A DNA stretch of 13,834 nucleotides from Clostridia bacterium. Its GTDB lineage: Bacteria > Bacillota > Clostridia > TANB77 > RGIG9151. The first letter of the stretch is position 1, and every line of letters starts with the position of its first letter. Below are positions 1-13,834 of this stretch, one piece after another. A program made the position numbers and the translations under genes. The notes below the pieces were generated by a model that was not told the DNA's origin, ran no database searches, and saw only the letters and a program-made list of their open reading frames with translations. Where the stretch lies: NCBI GenBank assembly GCA_016287855.1, contig JAEEXS010000038.1, positions 1-13,834 of the forward strand. The letters run 5' to 3'.

Positions 1-1
1 C

Positions 2-1201
2 GCCACCCTGGTCCTCATAGGACTCAATCGGCTTTCCTGCTCCACCCTGGTCCTCATAGGACTCAATCGGCTTTCCTGCTCCACCCTGGTCCTCGTAGGA
101 CTCAATCGGCTTTCCTGCTCCACCCTGGTCCTCGTAGGACTCAGTCGGCTTGCCAGGGACTCCGGGGTCCTCGTAGGACTCAGTCGGCTTGCCAGGGACT
201 CCGGGATCCTCGTAGGATTCACCACCGATGGTGCCGGGAGCGGTACCTTCATCCTCACCAAGAGGACGCCTGGGGTTGGGGTTCCAGCCGGAAGGCGGAT
301 TCCATCCACCAGAGGGCTGCGGCTTGTAACCGCAGATTTTGCATTCTCCGTAGCGGTTGAAGTCATGGCGCTCCAGCTTGGACTCCTGCTCTACGCCGAG
401 CAGAATCCCGCAGTCCTTACAATAGGTGTAAACCAGGCGGGAGATGATATGCCCATCTTCAGGAGCATCGGGATATACTCCCTGGCACTCCCATTCGCTA
501 TACTCATAACGAGTATGCTTGTGCTTGCAGGGCTCAGCGGTGGGGGTAGGCGTGGGTTCAGCGGTGGGGGTAGGCGTGGGTTCAGCGGTGGGGGTAGGCG
601 TGGGCTCAGCGGTGGGGGTAGGCGTGGGTTCAGCGGTGGGTTCGGGCGTGGGTTCAGGCGTGGGCTCCGGAGTGGGTTCGGGGGTAGGTTCGGGAGTCGG
701 CTGCGGAGTCACCGGAACGTAAATGATAATCTTTTCCGGCTCGGGCGGCTTTTTGTAGCCACACCGATCGCACACGTCATCGTCCCCGAAGTCATGACCC
801 GGTTCTACCGTGGTCCTCGTCGCCACCCATATGGTCTCACCACAATCGCCGCACTTCGCCCCTGCGTAGATATGATATTCCACGCAGGCGTCCTCCGTAC
901 CGACGATAATCGGGTCGGAGGTATAGTCCACCAATTCGTTGATGTCGTAGTGGATGTGCTGGCAGTCGTCGATGAGATTCAGATCCGGGGCAGTGCGTGC
1001 GAGCTGAAGATCGGACAGCTGCTTGCGCAGACCGTCGATAACAACTTTGCAGTCGCATTCGGCTTCGACCTTCCCGCAAACGGAGCACACGGGTTCGGCC
1101 TTCTCACCGTGGATATGATGCACGAGGCACCAAACCACGTGGCCCAGCAGGGCCAGGCACAGGATAACCAGGATAATTGTCAAAATGGGACGTCTCTTCA
1201 T
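2..1201 (-). CDS. Membrane-anchored/exported Cys-rich repeat protein. The 5' end is complete and the 3' end runs off the left window edge (400 codons visible). Not in the supplied ORF track.
   Basis: I checked every + strand triplet in register 2 mod 3 from 2 to 1201 and found no tta/cta/tca, so the minus frame is open for 400 codons. The ATG is at 1201..1199, with SD GAAAGGAGGA ending 9 nt upstream. The N-terminus MKRRPILTIILVILCLALLG is a basic-then-hydrophobic signal/anchor. Next come CSVCG..CDC, a CQH..CGDCG..HDF..CDRCGYKK module, a (EPTP)n/(AEPTPTPT)4 linker, a second module CKH..CKDCG..HDF..CKICGYKP, and then 13-aa ESYED repeats. Residues 1-150 align with the neighbouring 147-aa protein. 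Confidence 0.8.
   Translation of the reverse strand, partial: MKRRPILTIILVILCLALLGHVVWCLVHHIHGEKAEPVCSVCGKVEAECDCKVVIDGLRKQLSDLQLARTAPDLNLIDDCQHIHYDINELVDYTSDPIIVGTEDACVEYHIYAGAKCGDCGETIWVATRTTVEPGHDFGDDDVCDRCGYKKPPEPEKIIIYVPVTPQPTPEPTPEPTPEPTPEPTPEPTAEPTPTPTAEPTPTPTAEPTPTPTAEPTPTPTAEPCKHKHTRYEYSEWECQGVYPDAPEDGHIISRLVYTYCKDCGILLGVEQESKLERHDFNRYGECKICGYKPQPSGGWNPPSGWNPNPRRPLGEDEGTAPGTIGGESYEDPGVPGKPTESYEDPGVPGKPTESYEDQGGAGKPIESYEDQGGAGKPIESYEDQGGAGKPIESYEDQGG
3..236 (-). repeat. 39-bp head-to-tail tandem repeat, 6 units visible and truncated by the window edge. It encodes 13-aa units GKP(I/T)ESYED(Q/P)G(G/V)(A/P).
   Basis: Units start at 3, 42, 81, 120, 159 and 198. Units 1 and 2 are identical, and unit 3 differs by one a>g change. 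Units 4-6 diverge in their second half. The period is a multiple of 3 and in frame with CDS 2..1201. Confidence 0.9.
533..712 (-). repeat. 24-bp tandem repeat x4 (533-628) followed by seven degenerate 12-bp units (629-712). It encodes a Pro/Thr/Glu linker, (AEPTPTPT)4 then (EPTP)n.
   Basis: The units ttcagcggtgggggtaggcgtggg at 557-580 and 581-604 are identical. Those at 533-556 and 605-628 differ only at the first base. The array is in frame with CDS 2..1201. Confidence 0.9.
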
Positions 1202-1326
1202 TTTAGAACGTCCTCCTTTCATTATTTTTTTATATAAACCGATGTCAGCCCCATCGGATTCCAATGAAAAGGATATATTAAACATCCATCTCCCTTACAA
1301 GGGAGATTAAATCTATTTTTTCAGAC
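1202..1326 (-). promoter_or_regulatory. ~125-nt 5' leader of CDS 2..1201 with two hairpins.
   Basis: Hairpin 1 has an 8-bp stem, 1288-1295 / 1300-1307 (minus-strand RNA AUCUCCCU-UGUA-AGGGAGAU). Hairpin 2 has a 6-bp stem, 1239-1244 / 1252-1257, with a loop containing GGGCU. The SD is at 1211-1220. The leader is homologous to leader 1932..2055. The TSS position is inferred from the -10 box only. Confidence 0.5.
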
Positions 1327-1332
1327 ATTATC

Positions 1333-1361
1333 ATTATACCACATTATTATTTTTTTTGCAA
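1333..1361 (-). promoter_or_regulatory. SigA-type promoter with extended -10: TTGCAA-17 nt-TGgTATAAT.
   Basis: On the minus strand the -35 TTGCAA is at 1361..1356, the TGg at 1341..1339 and the TATAAT at 1338..1333. Confidence 0.6.
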
Positions 1362-1454
1362 CTAGTTATGTATACAGCTTGTCCTTATTCTTCTAATATT
1401 GCATAATAGTGCCATTTCCGCAATATTAAAATAATAAATATTTTTTTGTAAAAT

Positions 1455-1480
1455 AATACACCGGGGGCTGCCGGTGTATT
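1455..1480 (-). terminator. Rho-independent terminator after CDS 1488..1931.
   Basis: A 10-bp stem AATACACCGG / CCGGTGTATT (1455-1464 / 1471-1480) with a 6-nt loop. On the minus-strand RNA it is followed by AUUUUAC. It lies 8 nt past the stop codon. Confidence 0.7.
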
Positions 1481-1487
1481 GTAATGT

Positions 1488-1931
1488 TTATGAAATTTTA
1501 GTGTATCCGCATTCGATGCATTCGCCGTTTTCATTGAAATTATGAGAAATCTCGAACTCTTTGAGGGTTACCCATATATCTTCCCCACACTTATTGCATT
1601 TGTAAATTCTATCCACAGTATATGTGTAGCACACATTTTTTTCAAAAACATGTGTCGGGTAGGACTTCCACTCATCAATAAGGACTTCCCGCTCAGTGCG
1701 CGGATGCTGGCATTTTTCAATACTGTCCACATGTATCTCGCTATTTCCTAGTTGCTTCTCAGCAATAGATTCACAATAGGTGCATTTGTATTCCATCTGT
1801 CTACCACAAACAGGGCATGTAGCTTCCTTAAGCTTTACAGCAATGCTGGTATTGCACCCCTGCAAACCCAGACTCAGGATAACCACCAAAATAATCAGTA
1901 GCCAGCAAACAAAAGCACGACTATTTTTCAT
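1488..1931 (-). CDS. Small exported Cys-rich protein (147 aa), possible lipoprotein, and a paralog of the N-terminal 150 aa of CDS 2..1201.
   Basis: ORF-track entry 1488..1943. I prefer the ATG at 1931 because the SD AAAGGTGGA ends 7 nt upstream, and the track's first ATG lies inside that SD. The N-terminus is MKNSRAFVCWLLIILVVILSLGLQGC, a signal peptide with a lipobox-like LQGC. It carries CPVCG..CTYC, CQH, and CNKCG-x13-HNF-x5-CIECGYTK. Confidence 0.75.
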   Translation of the reverse strand: MKNSRAFVCWLLIILVVILSLGLQGCNTSIAVKLKEATCPVCGRQMEYKCTYCESIAEKQLGNSEIHVDSIEKCQHPRTEREVLIDEWKSYPTHVFEKNVCYTYTVDRIYKCNKCGEDIWVTLKEFEISHNFNENGECIECGYTKIS

Positions 1932-2055
1932 TCCGACATCCACCTTTCACAAATTCATTATGTTGTATATAATGTCGATACCCAAGCCCAGTACCAACTT
2001 ATATTTAAAACGTCCAGTTCTCTTACAAAAGATCTTTAATATATGTTTAAACGCG
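1932..2055 (-). promoter_or_regulatory. ~124-nt 5' leader of CDS 1488..1931, homologous to leader 1202..1326.
   Basis: Hairpins lie at equivalent positions. One is 2019-2023 / 2028-2032 with the same UGUA loop. The other is 1977-1981 / 1991-1995 with a GGGCU-containing loop. Each stem needs one G.U pair that exists only in the minus-strand RNA. Confidence 0.45.
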
Positions 2056-2061
2056 CATTAT

Positions 2062-2089
2062 ATTATATCACACTCTCAGTTTTTTTCAA
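2062..2089 (-). promoter_or_regulatory. SigA-type promoter with extended -10: TTGAAA-16 nt-TGaTATAAT.
   Basis: On the minus strand the -35 TTGAAA is at 2089..2084, the TGa at 2070..2068 and the TATAAT at 2067..2062. Confidence 0.6.
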
Positions 2090-2112
2090 CTAATTATGTG
2101 CACTTTTTATAC

Positions 2113-2143
2113 AAAAAGACACCGGTGCTACCGGTGCCTTTTT
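2113..2143. terminator. Bidirectional rho-independent terminator ending the ABC-ABC-yitT operon.
   Basis: The stem is GACACCGG / CCGGTGCC (2118-2125 / 2131-2138) with one mismatch and a 5-nt loop. It is flanked by AAAAA (2113-2117) and TTTTT (2139-2143). Confidence 0.75.
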
Positions 2144-2197
2144 AATTTCAGAAATTGATCATCTTAGAAGTTTTATAACAGCTTTCCTTATTATGAT

Positions 2198-3085
2198 TTA
2201 CGTAGTCGGACGCTGGAAAAACCAGCCTTCTACTCTATTTGAATTAATAACATCAATAAACGCATCTGGATCTGCTTTTTTTATATTCTTTATAACCAAA
2301 TACATCTCATCTCCAGCAACAACCGAATACACTAAATTCTTTTCTCCTCCTTTATAAAGCCCTTTACCTTTAAAAAGCGTTGCTCCATGGTTTGTAGTTT
2401 CTCTTATTTCTTTATATACATCATCTGGCTTGTCCGTAATTATAAACAACGTCTGCTTTTGATATCTTCTATATATCAAGTGAATTACTTCTGTACCTAC
2501 ATATTGATAAATTATAGAGTATAATGCTTTTTCCCAACCATATACAAGACCTGCAACGGTAAGTAACGCAATATTACCCAGTAAAATATAATTAAATGCA
2601 TCAATTCCATATTTTTTAGAGCATAGTGCAGAAATAAAATCTGTTCCGCCTGTTGTCGCTTCAGCATTTAAACATATCGCTATAGCAAGTCCATTAATTA
2701 TTCCACCAAAAACTGAGGTAAGCAATAAATCACCGGTTATTTCGTAATGAGGAAATAAATCTACAACTAAACCTGTTAACACTATGCTTACAATAGATAA
2801 AATTGCAAATCGTTTTCCTATATACTTAAAACATATAACCGCTAAAATAAGGTTTAATGGAATATTTATAAAGCTATATGGAACATAAATATTTAAAAAC
2901 GTATCAAAAAGCTTTTGAAGTAAAATTGCAATTCCAACGAAACCTCCAGGGATAAGTCCACCAAAATATACAAAGCTATTTAGGTTAAGACCCATGATAA
3001 AAGCGCCTATACCGACCATTATGGCCCTACCAATATCCCGCTTAACTTTATTTTCTTTTTCCCAAGGATGTACTAGTTCGTCCAT
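2198..3085 (-). CDS. YitT-family integral membrane protein with a C-terminal DUF2179-type domain.
   Basis: A 295-aa ORF with a multi-TM N-terminal part (GGLIPGGFVGIAILLQ) and a soluble C-terminal domain (TLFIITDKPDDVYKEI...GATLFKGKGLY...). The SD AGGAAGGGA lies upstream. It starts 20 nt after the ABC stop, so it is probably co-transcribed. Confidence 0.85.
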   Translation of the reverse strand: MDELVHPWEKENKVKRDIGRAIMVGIGAFIMGLNLNSFVYFGGLIPGGFVGIAILLQKLFDTFLNIYVPYSFINIPLNLILAVICFKYIGKRFAILSIVSIVLTGLVVDLFPHYEITGDLLLTSVFGGIINGLAIAICLNAEATTGGTDFISALCSKKYGIDAFNYILLGNIALLTVAGLVYGWEKALYSIIYQYVGTEVIHLIYRRYQKQTLFIITDKPDDVYKEIRETTNHGATLFKGKGLYKGGEKNLVYSVVAGDEMYLVIKNIKKADPDAFIDVINSNRVEGWFFQRPTT

Positions 3086-7007: not shown

Positions 7008-7018
7008 TTTTATCAAAG

Positions 7019-7057
7019 AAAAAGCGGGGACCAACACTCCCCGCTTTTTCTTTTTTT
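7019..7057. terminator. Bidirectional rho-independent terminator, shared by the small + ORF and the convergent acyl-CoA synthetase gene.
   Basis: The stem is GCGGGGA / TCCCCGC (7024-7030 / 7038-7044) with a 7-nt loop. An A-run lies at 7019-7023 and T-runs at 7045-7049 and 7051-7057. Confidence 0.85.
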
Positions 7058-7131
7058 ATGAACAGAACATTTATAGGCTTTCGCCTTATGTTATTATTAT
7101 ACTCTAGTATCTATAATAATGTCAATAATTT

Positions 7132-12106: not shown

Positions 12107-12541
12107 TTATATTAAATCCAATTTGTCCATACGTTCCTTATACTTTCCACCAAGGCACTCCGTTTCTAGCCAAATTTTCAAATACTCTATTGCTTCTTCT
12201 TCGCTTATAAACCTACCTGGGAAACATATTACATTTGTATCGTTATGTTGCCTCGAAAGCACTGCAAAATCTTTACAAGTACAGTTCACTGCTCGTACAC
12301 CTTTAAACTTATTTGCTGTAATACTAACTCCAACTCCACTTCCACAAACTAAAACTCCTCGTTCACACTCACCATTAGACACAGCTTTAGAAGCCGGAAT
12401 CGCATAATCTGGGAAACCATCATCTTTATCGAAAGTATAAGCTCCAAAATCCTTAACTTCATAACCCTCTTTCAATAAATATTCTTTTAATTTCTCCTTT
12501 AATGGGAACCCAGCATGATCAGCTCCAATTGCAATTTTCAT
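12107..12541 (-). CDS. rpiB: Ribose-5-phosphate isomerase B (RpiB/LacAB family).
   Basis: The motifs are MKIAIGADHAGFPLKEKL and GVLVCGSGVGVSITANK. I prefer the ATG at 12541, with SD GGGAGTG 9 nt upstream. The track's start at 12553 is a GTG inside that SD. Confidence 0.93.
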   Translation of the reverse strand: MKIAIGADHAGFPLKEKLKEYLLKEGYEVKDFGAYTFDKDDGFPDYAIPASKAVSNGECERGVLVCGSGVGVSITANKFKGVRAVNCTCKDFAVLSRQHNDTNVICFPGRFISEEEAIEYLKIWLETECLGGKYKERMDKLDLI

Positions 12542-12559
12542 AATAGGAATCACTCCCTT

Positions 12560-13834
12560 CTATTTTTTAGCCAATTCAGCGTGTATCAATTTCATTTCTT
12601 CCTGTCTTTTTACCTTCTTAGTAGTAGTCTTTATCAACTCATCATAAGTAGTAATAAGTTTTTGAATATGCTTATATCTAGGGAAAGTAGTATTAATTTC
12701 TCTAATTTTATCCCACAATATTTTTTCTAGTTCTTCATCAGTTTTATCGGCATATTTTTCTTTTATAATCTCTTTATCAAAAACTGCTTTTACTGAAACA
12801 ATTATATCATTATCTTTCTTATCTTCAAGTCCAAACACCATACATTCTTGGACTAAATCAATTCTATTTACTATTGTTTCTATTTCTTCAGGGAATACCT
12901 TTTTACCATTTCTAAGAACTAGCATATTTTTTATTCTTCCGGTTAAAAATAACATCCCATCTTTATCAAAATAACCTAAATCTCCAGTATAAAACCAACC
13001 ATCTTTTAAGACTTCGGCTGTTAATTCTGGCATTTCATAATACCCAAGCATTATATTAGGACCTTTTACTCTTACTTCTCCTATGCCCTTCTCATCTTTA
13101 TCTACAATTTCAATTGTATCGTTTATCATAGGGAAACCTACTGAACCCTTTTTCATAGCCTTAAAGTTTTCACCCGCAATTACAGGAGAAGTTTCACTTA
13201 AACCATATCCTTGAACTGTTGTAATACCCAAATCAGTAAAGCCTTTTAGATATAAAGGATCTGCTGCTGCGCCTCCAGAAACAATCATCCGTAATTCGCC
13301 ACCTAAGGCATCCAGTATAGGCTTAAATAGCTTTCTTCTAATATCTATATGAAATTTTAATAAACAATTACTAATCTTAATTGCATTTTTTATCGTCTTG
13401 CTCTTACCTTGTTTATCTATTTCTCTCATTATTGCTTTATATATAGATTCTAGTAATATAGGCACACCAACAAAAACAGTAACTTTATACTCCTTTAAGT
13501 TCTGTTTAATATATCTTAAACCGTCTGGGAACGTATTTCTTACACCATCTGCAAGCATCAAAGCCATACATGTTGAGCCAAATATATGATGAAGTGGTAA
13601 AAATGCAATATTGGTATCTGTTGGTCTAATATCTTCCGTGCACTGAAGTGCATAGATATTAGAAGCTATATTCTTTTGAGAAAGCATTACTGCTTTTGCT
13701 TGTGAAGTAGTTCCAGAGGTAAATAATAAGATATTCATAGCATGTTCATCTATTTTATAATCCACATATTCATTCTTTCCAGCTTTTAACTTAGTTCTTC
13801 CGGCTTCGGTCAATTCTTTAATATTTTTATATCC
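12560..13834 (-). CDS. AMP-forming long-chain acyl-CoA synthetase (COG1022-like). The N-terminus lies beyond the right window edge.
   Basis: The motifs are FTSGTTSQAKAV, GYGLSETSP and WFYTGDLG...TGRIKNMLVLRNGKKVFPEEIE. The track's start at 13813 is a TTG. The frame stays open through 13834 (..GYKNIKELTEAG..), and the ~140 N-terminal residues typical of this family are missing. Confidence 0.9.
   Translation of the reverse strand, partial: GYKNIKELTEAGRTKLKAGKNEYVDYKIDEHAMNILLFTSGTTSQAKAVMLSQKNIASNIYALQCTEDIRPTDTNIAFLPLHHIFGSTCMALMLADGVRNTFPDGLRYIKQNLKEYKVTVFVGVPILLESIYKAIMREIDKQGKSKTIKNAIKISNCLLKFHIDIRRKLFKPILDALGGELRMIVSGGAAADPLYLKGFTDLGITTVQGYGLSETSPVIAGENFKAMKKGSVGFPMINDTIEIVDKDEKGIGEVRVKGPNIMLGYYEMPELTAEVLKDGWFYTGDLGYFDKDGMLFLTGRIKNMLVLRNGKKVFPEEIETIVNRIDLVQECMVFGLEDKKDNDIIVSVKAVFDKEIIKEKYADKTDEELEKILWDKIREINTTFPRYKHIQKLITTYDELIKTTTKKVKRQEEMKLIHAELAKK

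Follow-up and report, generated by a model that had tools for sequence, protein, structure and literature searches.

The stretch of DNA analysed here (the window) is positions 1 to 13,834 of contig JAEEXS010000038.1 (assembly GCA_016287855.1) from a Clostridia bacterium, and its left end carries a pair of gene cassettes that an earlier note, made from the letters alone, had described as looking like duplicated or modular expression units for a family of exported Cys-rich proteins. Two consecutive units, B and then A, were found on the minus strand of window 1-2400 downstream of a gene assigned to YitT_membrane and DUF2179, and the hairpins, boxes, promoters and leaders that the earlier note had listed were all located where it had placed them. 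The host was taken to be an AT-rich spore-former because a SpoIIGA-type Peptidase_U4 is present. The features are listed below in the direction of transcription; the module is a Cys/His unit of roughly 75 amino acids (aa), and the TG extension of both -10 elements was flagged by a promoter scan.

The B and A cassettes and their relatives

2120..2136, minus strand: CACCGGTAGCACCGGTG, which terminates the YitT-family gene upstream and marks where the variable region has its left edge
2062..2103, minus strand: promoter of B
2103..2084, minus strand: B box GTGCACATAATTAGTTGAAA, which includes the -35
2089..2084, minus strand: B -35, TTGAAA
2070..2062, minus strand: B extended -10, TGATATAAT (TGaTATAAT)
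1932..2055, minus strand: leader B, about 124 nucleotides (nt)
1488..1931, minus strand: coding region of cassette B, 147 aa
B protein, N-terminus: signal with a possible lipobox, LQGC (Cys26)
B residues 39-54: CxxCG..CxxC knuckle
1712..1503, minus strand: single module of B
1459..1476, minus strand: intrinsic terminator of cassette B, CACCGGCAGCCCCCGGTG, with the T-rich stretch TATTATTTT
1333..1440, minus strand: promoter region of A (upstream stretch, box, -35 and extended -10)
1440..1376, minus strand: conserved upstream stretch of A, about 75 nt
1375..1356, minus strand: A box GTATACATAACTAGTTGCAA, which contains the palindrome AACTAGTT and the -35
1361..1356, minus strand: A -35, TTGCAA
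1341..1333, minus strand: A extended -10, TGGTATAAT (TGgTATAAT)
1202..1326, minus strand: leader A, about 125 nt
2..1201, minus strand: coding region of cassette A, 400 codons, cut by the window end
A residues 6-27: transmembrane anchor
A residues 39-51: CxxCG..CxC knuckle
About 964..749, minus strand: module 1 of A
748..536, minus strand: Pro/Thr-rich (PT) linker of A
535..323, minus strand: module 2 of A
221..3, minus strand: 13-aa acidic repeats of A

To compare the non-coding parts of the two cassettes, 1202-1480 was locally aligned with 1932-2143. The alignment scored 41 as compared to 11.9 ± 1.6 (maximum 21) for 1000 dinucleotide shuffles (z = 17.8), the leaders alone gave z = 8.8 in the same shuffle test, and no shuffle reached the observed score in either comparison. 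The leader core TTGTAAGRGANNTGGAYGT occurred twice in the window with 0.01 occurrences expected. The proteins were homologous as well, with 31% identity by BLASTP (E 3e-14) in an alignment starting at residue 6. B was also matched by the second module of A (E 2e-4), and the translations of both proteins had their first CxVCG at residue 39, as the earlier note had read them. The paired cassettes are therefore real. The hairpins described as lying upstream of each cassette were also present, although they belong to the preceding genes (YitT and B) and a cassette's own terminator is the one at its 3' end. In front of B in the window strain, the YitT terminator takes the place of the longer upstream stretch.

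The same arrangement was found in independent NCBI, JGI, ENA and Logan assemblies, and protein B (P0001) was the same or almost the same in their contigs, with full identity in at least four assemblies. A 16.5-kb contig, L001, was 99.3% identical to the window over the region and contained a complete copy of the truncated A reading frame (L001 7282-8709, 475 aa) followed by a GC-rich 3' untranslated region (UTR) of about 120 nt, the same terminator 20-mer that ends cassette B, and then AT-rich genes again. L001 also contained a third cassette, C (about 12160-12760), which shares the box, TGGTATAAT, the terminator and the tail and has TAATCTCCCTTGTAAGGGAGATGGACGT as its leader core. The C product was a 118-aa secreted protein ending in ...GHDHHSHGECPLCGYQ, with a GC3 (the share of G and C among third bases of codons) of 0.63, and it matched the second half of the module (E 5e-5). 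Cassette C was absent from the corresponding site of a related contig, L003. Scanning metagenomes with a box-plus-promoter pattern identified cassette D in L008, directly after YitT and with no B, and cassette E at a different locus in L018, with 7 of the 13 matches being chance promoters with no leader. A fourth A allele was found in L032. In the related contigs, which by their record names come from bovine or ruminant metagenomes, the pattern occurred only at cassettes, and the leader and box of C, D, E and the fourth A allele all preceded the same protein family. The copy number and order of cassettes varied between strains (YitT-B-A, YitT-616aa-74aa-B-A' with another A allele, and YitT-D). 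Together these data support the earlier reading of duplicated, self-contained cassettes for an exported or membrane-anchored Cys-rich family, and B here and C and E elsewhere are evidently paralogous copies that brought the regulatory region and terminator along with them.

The 616-aa and 74-aa genes of the second arrangement are AT-rich, lie between YitT and cassette B (L003 3785-5856; present too in L004 and L032, and in part in L013, L033, L034 and L035), have their own CACCGG..CCGGTG terminator and are absent in the window strain. When Pfam, PHROGs and PADLOC were scanned, their products had no Pfam or PADLOC family and weak PHROG matches. The A gene contains tandem repeats of 39 nt (4.8 copies) and 24 nt (5.6 copies), and contigs of several assemblies (window position 1, the L008 end and the L032 end) break inside its PT or acidic repeats, suggesting that the locus is systematically under-represented in short-read assemblies.

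Protein family, composition and allele exchange at the A gene

The earlier note had recognised neither the protein family nor the leader, and neither was present in Pfam, NCBIfam or Rfam. The A, B and C proteins had no curated family in Pfam, NCBIfam, PHROGs or PADLOC and gave low-complexity PT or sub-threshold zinc-ribbon matches only, the best zinc-ribbon scores (DZR PF12773, FmdB TIGR02605 and others) being 16-17 bits as compared to cut-offs of 27-31. The module follows the pattern C.H...C..CG...H.F...C..CGY, and its Cys/His arrangement suggests that it may bind zinc or another metal. An exhaustive hidden Markov model search of 1.84 billion representatives, using a profile built from the window only, matched 84 representatives that fell into two groups. 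The first group consisted of giant surface proteins of 1000-2200 aa with up to 26 tandem modules together with choline-binding, Ig or PKD domains. The second consisted of A-like proteins of 310-437 aa that share the whole architecture of A, with a basic tail, a transmembrane helix with GH(V/L)xWCL, a CxxC..CxC knuckle, a coiled coil, a Cys cluster, module 1, PT linker, module 2 and an acidic tail. This A-like family is uncurated and was defined in this analysis.

The contigs of the A-like genes shared a neighbourhood of ABC, YitT, the gene itself, GHL10/Cu_amine_oxidN1, Cu-oxidase_4 and DZR, with synteny shown in L021, L022 and L025. The window A has the anchor with GH(V/L)xWCL, the knuckle, the two modules with their PT linker and the YitT-GHL10 position of this family. 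Because both neighbourhood and architecture are shared, A is the positional orthologue of a conserved single-copy gene and the local allele of a gene fixed between YitT-family and GHL10/Cu-amine-oxidase-N genes in an AT-rich clade of Clostridia. The syntenic gene of other species already has the two-module form, therefore A is the ancestral form and B the shortened derivative, which overturns the earlier proposal that one copy had been extended by a linker, a second module and repeats. B, on this evidence a derived copy, has a single module, a signal resembling that of lipoproteins, and a leader that has degenerated.

The possible lipobox of B, read from the translation, places Cys26 after a hydrophobic stretch with Gln at -2, which is atypical as compared to [LVI][ASTVI][GAS]C. 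An AlphaFold2 model of B built from a 12-row alignment had a predicted local distance difference test score of 73.7, with 78-92 in the C-terminal module, which was modelled as three long beta strands and a terminal knuckle. Foldseek of this model against the PDB gave no match below E 0.36, and a sequence profile search of the PDB gave nothing significant. A word-indexed protein search returned B alone, even with a four-sequence profile, and missed the A-like proteins found by the exhaustive search. No relatives were found by tblastn against phages and plasmids, and scans of viral sequences gave no box matches and five chance terminator matches in GC-rich contigs.

The base composition of the coding regions was discordant with their surroundings, as the earlier note had seen, and synonymous sites are where the discordance resides. 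GC3 was 0.65 in A and 0.43 in B as compared to 0.19-0.24 in nine neighbouring genes, and the GC content of the A coding region was 0.60. The codon adaptation index (CAI) against a host set was 0.24 for A and 0.46 for B as compared to 0.68-0.77 for host genes, and codons rare in the host made up about 30% of A versus 3-8% of host genes. GC content rose sharply at the start codon and GC3 was flat along A (0.57-0.72 per 40 codons). The coding-strand GC skew of A was -0.02, and G-runs like those of the Borrelia vls cassettes were absent. The non-coding 3' UTR of A (about 120 nt) was also GC-rich, which argues against a purely codon-level cause. This UTR (L001 8710-8830) is about 58% GC by eye and had no Rfam match. 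Ahead of the terminator it has a C7-GAAAA-G7 hairpin along with further hairpins made of G/C runs, and despite the differing coding regions its conservation in L003 is 97%. In other species the terminator lies within about 15 nt of the stop codon.

Two points go beyond the earlier note: the composition discordance is family-wide and found across species, and A is hypervariable between close strains. GC3 of the gene was 0.63 in L022 (neighbours 0.24-0.28), 0.56 in L019 (neighbours 0.19), 0.42 in L025 (neighbours 0.13-0.21) and 0.39 in L021 (neighbours 0.19), and it was elevated in every species with measurable neighbours. Every full-architecture relative with readable flanks lay at the same locus in an AT-rich genome. 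A giant-repeat relative in a 42% GC genome had a composition concordant with its neighbours and no such leader.

Comparing L001 with L003, nucleotide identity was 91-94% in housekeeping genes, 98% in the B cassette, 99% in the B-A spacer, 97% in the A 3' UTR, 86% in the A leader and 75% in the A coding region, where the alignment had 363 gap columns. Divergence between alleles extended from around the -10 or early leader to the stop codon, with near-identical flanks. Allele pairs were mosaic: identity varied between 54% and 100% from one 30-codon block to another. A and D were 54-58% identical per block in module 1 and 90-100% in module 2, and A' and D shared an 87% block. Synonymous divergence (dS) exceeded 2 in A/A' and A'/D and was 0.74 in A/D, a pair with near-identical blocks in common, and the ratio of nonsynonymous to synonymous divergence (dN/dS) was 0.10-0.37 across the three pairs. 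From these comparisons the alleles are evidently old, under purifying selection, and shuffled and exchanged by homologous recombination, with the upstream stretch, the 3' half of the leader and the 3' UTR and terminator being the likely homology arms. Two synonymous-saturated alleles both keep a GC3 of about 0.64, therefore the high GC is either actively maintained or re-imported time and again from donors sharing the same AT-rich flanks. No GC-rich donors were seen among the representatives searched and the flanking contexts read.

The segment holding the B cassette and the B-A spacer (window 1459-2103) is 98-99% identical between these lineages with 91-94% housekeeping identity, which suggests recent spread or a strong constraint reaching synonymous sites.

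The leader RNA

The comparison of leaders took in 12 distinct sequences, of which six are of the window type and six belong to other species. The elements of the window leaders, including the Shine-Dalgarno (SD) sequence and an anti-SD segment, were as follows.

1307..1288, minus strand: P1 hairpin of leader A
1287..1282, minus strand: GGAUGU of leader A
1271..1263, minus strand: anti-SD of leader A, CUUUUCAUU
1257..1239, minus strand: P2 hairpin of leader A, loop GGGCUGA
1238..1221, minus strand: U/A-rich tract of leader A
1216..1212, minus strand: SD of leader A, GGAGG
1213..1188, minus strand: hairpin GGACGU/ACGUCC of leader A with the AUG in its loop
2035..2016, minus strand: weak P1 of leader B
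2015..2010, minus strand: GGACGU of leader B
1998..1974, minus strand: P2 of leader B, loop UGGGCUUGG

P1 was paired in 96.4% of cells across the 12 leaders as compared to 38-56% for slid controls, and compensatory changes were found at five of its seven pairs (variants AUCUCCCU/AGGGAGAU, AUUUGCC/GGCAAAU, AUUCGCC/GGCGAAU and AUUGUC/GACAAU). GGAYGU was a conserved unpaired element 3' of P1. The stem of P2 differed in nearly every copy (CCGAUG/CAUCGG, GCAGUGUU/AACACUGC, GUAGUGCU/AGCACUAC, UCGAUGUU/AACAUCGA, GUUGGUAC/GUAUCGAC and GUCGAUGU/ACAUCGAC) and its loop kept G(G/U)GCU (GNGCU), followed by a U-rich tract and AUAUAUA. In the six window-type leaders, P1 and P2 together had double changes at 9 of 16 pairs. 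MAFFT set P2 of A one register off, and the tool-counted P2 pairing of 78% is an underestimate. P2 of A was flagged as terminator-like by a scan, and a hairpin with a U-rich tract was present in all 12 leaders.

Pairing of CCUUUC with GAAAGG, the anti-SD with the SD, was found in the A, A', C, D and E leaders, the flanks of the helix varying among them; leader B has no anti-SD segment. A GGACGU:ACGUCC helix encloses the AUG in the window type, and in the other clade a GACAUU:AAUGUC helix pairs the start codon and an outer helix, AAGUGGUU/AACCACUU, encloses P1 and P2. The leader thus has the predicted sequestration of SD and AUG that characterises a translational riboregulator. The minimum-free-energy fold of leader A was -41 kcal/mol (z = -3.3), with none of 200 shuffles as stable, and leader C likewise gave a z of about -3.3, both folds having the anti-SD:SD helix. 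A covariance model of the window-type leader matched only cassette leaders in the 116 kb of DNA searched and scored leader B at 71 bits. An Rfam 15 cmscan of the window and eight related loci (E <= 1) gave no match on any leader; its matches, all sub-threshold and off the leader, were sraA, a snoRNA and L10_leader, the last at the 3' end of the L024 gene (E 0.82, below the gathering score).

Two other features of the leader region were considered and set aside. A small open reading frame in leader A (MSEKIDL...) was not conserved in the other cassettes, and a cwpV-like invertible switch was rejected as no inverted repeats flank the leader segment in a repeat scan of 1-2400. The sole inverted repeat near A lies in the stretch upstream of its promoter (window 1385-1402 and 1420-1437, 18 nt, 89% complementary, 17-nt spacer) and by eye was not clearly conserved in other cassettes.

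Candidate explanations and related systems

The account that we favour, and consider as a whole to be rather likely, combines a cassette family, allele replacement, a gated leader and a maintained GC composition. A cassette consists of about 330 nt of conserved 5' non-coding DNA, a coding region, a CACCGG..CCGGTG intrinsic terminator and a short conserved tail. The 5' part is made up of the upstream stretch, the palindromic box with the -35 fused to it, a promoter of the sigma-A type with an extended -10 and the structured leader of about 125 nt, and the product is a membrane-anchored, lipoprotein-like or secreted protein built from the Cys/His module. Whole or partial A alleles are replaced by homologous recombination, leaving close lineages with deeply diverged mosaic alleles. 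As judged from predicted structure, a strong constitutive promoter may be gated by the leader, with P2 and its U-rich tract acting as an attenuator and separate helices sequestering the SD and AUG, and a factor recognising P1, GGAYGU and the GNGCU loop would release expression. The GC-rich, host-anti-adapted composition would be a maintained property of the recombining gene pool caused by GC-biased conversion or by selection at the DNA or RNA level, and not by one recent import. This last step is the weakest.

A bolder version, which we hold only tentatively, is that some process confined to this locus holds the hypervariable envelope-protein gene near 60% GC throughout a whole clostridial clade of 31% GC genomes, with the conserved AT-rich leader and terminator serving as recombination arms and a hitherto undescribed riboregulator as the gate. 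The candidates for such a process are strongly GC-biased gene conversion among expressed paralogous cassettes and selection for GC-rich DNA or mRNA. If true, the locus would offer a parallel, in a Firmicute, to the anomalous composition of vls, assembled from cassettes that bear promoters.

Several results weigh against the favoured account. GC-biased conversion is only a candidate cause, and no GC3 gradient was found toward the edges of the A gene. For the leader, the U tract after P2 is interrupted (UUUAUAUA), making its strength as a terminator doubtful, and leader B did not fold more stably than its shuffles (z = 0.11). The two clades also differ in how P2 and the outer helix are arranged, and leaders of the other clade went undetected by the window-type covariance model. 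For the cassettes, comparison of L001 with L003 gave no clean target-site duplication at the cassette C indel, and scanning genome contigs with the box-plus-promoter pattern gave no true instance and one unrelated promoter match (L005). Neither protein search returned A itself, the word-indexed one not even with a profile that included A-like sequences, and the library of 1.84 billion representatives has no member close to A. With database coverage imperfect, the "no homologue" results for this family need caution.

An alternative for the composition is recent horizontal import, in which coding regions from GC-rich donors (about 55-60%) were recombined behind the resident promoter and leader and have yet to be ameliorated, with B further along. 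A GC3 of 0.63-0.67 and a CAI of about 0.25 do look foreign, B is intermediate (GC3 0.43), the locus clearly exchanges DNA between lineages and database coverage is incomplete. However, import would require many independent events (A, A', D, the L032 allele, C, E, L019 and L022), all landing exactly between leader and terminator, and therefore donors with the same AT-rich flanks. Among the 1.84 billion representatives no close relative was found in a GC-rich context, the contexts read being AT-rich and syntenic, and the dS-saturated alleles retain the same high GC3. We consider recent import unlikely. A mobile element was judged more improbable still. In that case the cassettes would be integron-like, miniature transposable, mobilised by an insertion sequence (IS) or a phage moron, with the CACCGG..CCGGTG hairpin as a recombination site, which would fit the presence of C in L001 and its absence from the same L003 site, the IS200-like Y1 transposase and two 26-nt repeats next to E, and the same terminator 20-mer on both sides of A. 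Against this, about 10 kb around A and B is free of any integrase, reverse transcriptase or transposase, the cassettes differ from those of integrons in that each carries a promoter, C has neither a target-site duplication nor a clean insertion junction, no phage or plasmid relatives were found, and the A gene is syntenic across species.

Targeted hypermutation, whether through a mechanism like that of diversity-generating retroelements, a deaminase or an error-prone polymerase, could in principle make both the diversity and the GC bias. Divergence in the coding region far exceeds that in its flanks, and the composition shift is sharp at the start codon. We regard it as very improbable. Two of the three allele pairs are saturated in dS, which together with a dN/dS of 0.10-0.37 points to old alleles under purifying selection, the long blocks of 87-100% identity between divergent alleles point to recombination, and the window and L001 copies are 99.3% identical. 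The called genes of the related loci include no reverse transcriptase, and a search of window 1-2400 gave no template/variable repeat pair, so that both marks of a diversity-generating retroelement are lacking in the DNA covered. An assembly chimera joining GC-rich and AT-rich organisms could be suspected as the window ends inside the A repeats and several contigs break in the A gene. Both A junctions, however, recur in a 16.5-kb NCBI contig and in contigs of 28.6 kb (ENA) and 10.6 kb (Logan) from other samples, the reading frame is unbroken, and A is bordered on either side by syntenic genes that are AT-rich. The agreement of the window with L001 and the continuation of both junctions into AT-rich genes therefore exclude a chimera, to which we give a negligible probability.

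The locus was also compared with known systems. The nearest analogue for the composition anomaly is the vls locus of Borrelia, a variable surface-protein locus with cassettes much GC-richer than the genome. The vls cassettes are 49% GC as compared to 28.6% for the genome, have a coding-strand GC skew of 0.52, and keep a composition that is conserved across species and thought to be maintained, with variation arising by segmental recombination (PMC11499132). The high GC is shared, whereas the vls layout of one expression site with promoterless silent cassettes, and its strong skew, were not seen in the contigs covered: every cassette found so far has its own promoter, leader and terminator, the skew is -0.02 versus 0.52, and the host is a Firmicute. 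Integrons are similar in having compact units of gene plus hairpin that vary in number and order at a fixed position, often with foreign composition. Their cassettes are promoterless, end in attC and depend on IntI, whereas those described here have promoters and plain terminator hairpins, and no integrase was among the called genes of the window and related loci.

The vlp/vsp genes of Mycoplasma are tandem paralogues with a conserved promoter and 5' region, divergent repeat-bearing bodies and strain-variable copy number, and they switch by promoter poly-A tracts or site-specific inversion. The combination of conserved 5' region and divergent body is the likeness to the present cassettes, and the difference is that neither a poly-A switch nor an inversion element was seen here. 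The vlp/vsp genes are not known to have a structured leader with covarying helices or a GC-rich coding anomaly. The leader resembles Firmicute riboswitch and attenuator leaders in its position between a sigma-A-type promoter and the SD, its covarying helices and conserved unpaired nucleotides, its hairpin with a U-rich tract and its predicted SD/AUG sequestration. It differs from the cis-regulatory leaders of Rfam in matching no family and in having a helix arrangement that differs between the two clades. Giant Firmicute proteins such as P0005 (1808 aa, with choline-binding repeats) share the C.H...C..CG...H.F/Y...C..CG[YH] module, but have normal gene composition and no such leader, whereas the cassette proteins are small, anchored or lipoprotein-like and have one or two modules.

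The system is thus a family of paralogous cassettes that goes back to a conserved, hypervariable locus for an envelope protein, and it combines variable surface-protein cassettes with a cis-regulatory leader. The leader is a covariation-supported structured RNA with no Rfam family and a candidate riboregulator of envelope-protein expression in gut Clostridia. For the Cys/His modules, which giant cell-wall proteins also carry, there is neither a Pfam model nor a solved structure that matches. The A gene, vertically syntenic but recombining, is a clean natural case of a synonymous composition held some 45 points higher than that of the genome. It can be set against its AT-rich flanks, against paralogue B, which varies less and is less GC-rich, and against its counterparts in other species, and it bears directly on the long-debated matter of whether GC-biased gene conversion or selection shapes bacterial base composition.

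Other observations were made in the window and the related contigs. A strong intrinsic terminator with a 16-bp stem (window 7012-7106, minus strand) lies between an ABC-transporter pair and acyl-CoA synthetase genes, and the weak sraA match fell on it (E 0.86, 27.8 bits as compared to a gathering score of 56) and was judged to be chance. In L018 (1-759, minus strand, and 840-905), cassette E adjoins an IS200-like Y1 transposase reading frame (PF01797, E 8e-16) and follows two direct 26-nt copies of AACTTTTGATGGACGTCCCCGAGTTC. These repeats contain GATGGACGTCC, which is close to the leader element GAGATGGACGTCGC and identical over GATGGACGTC, and together with the transposase they could be a REP/RAYT-type element or a coincidence. 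The conserved tail after the terminator, TTTTCCTAAAGGAATTTAAATA (L001 12740-12770 and 8835-8865), is nearly the reverse complement of CCTTTAGGAAAA (L001 12070-12110). The latter forms the left edge of the cassette C insertion site, is also present in the empty L003 site, and may indicate where recombination is favoured or be nothing more than a small palindrome that arose by chance.

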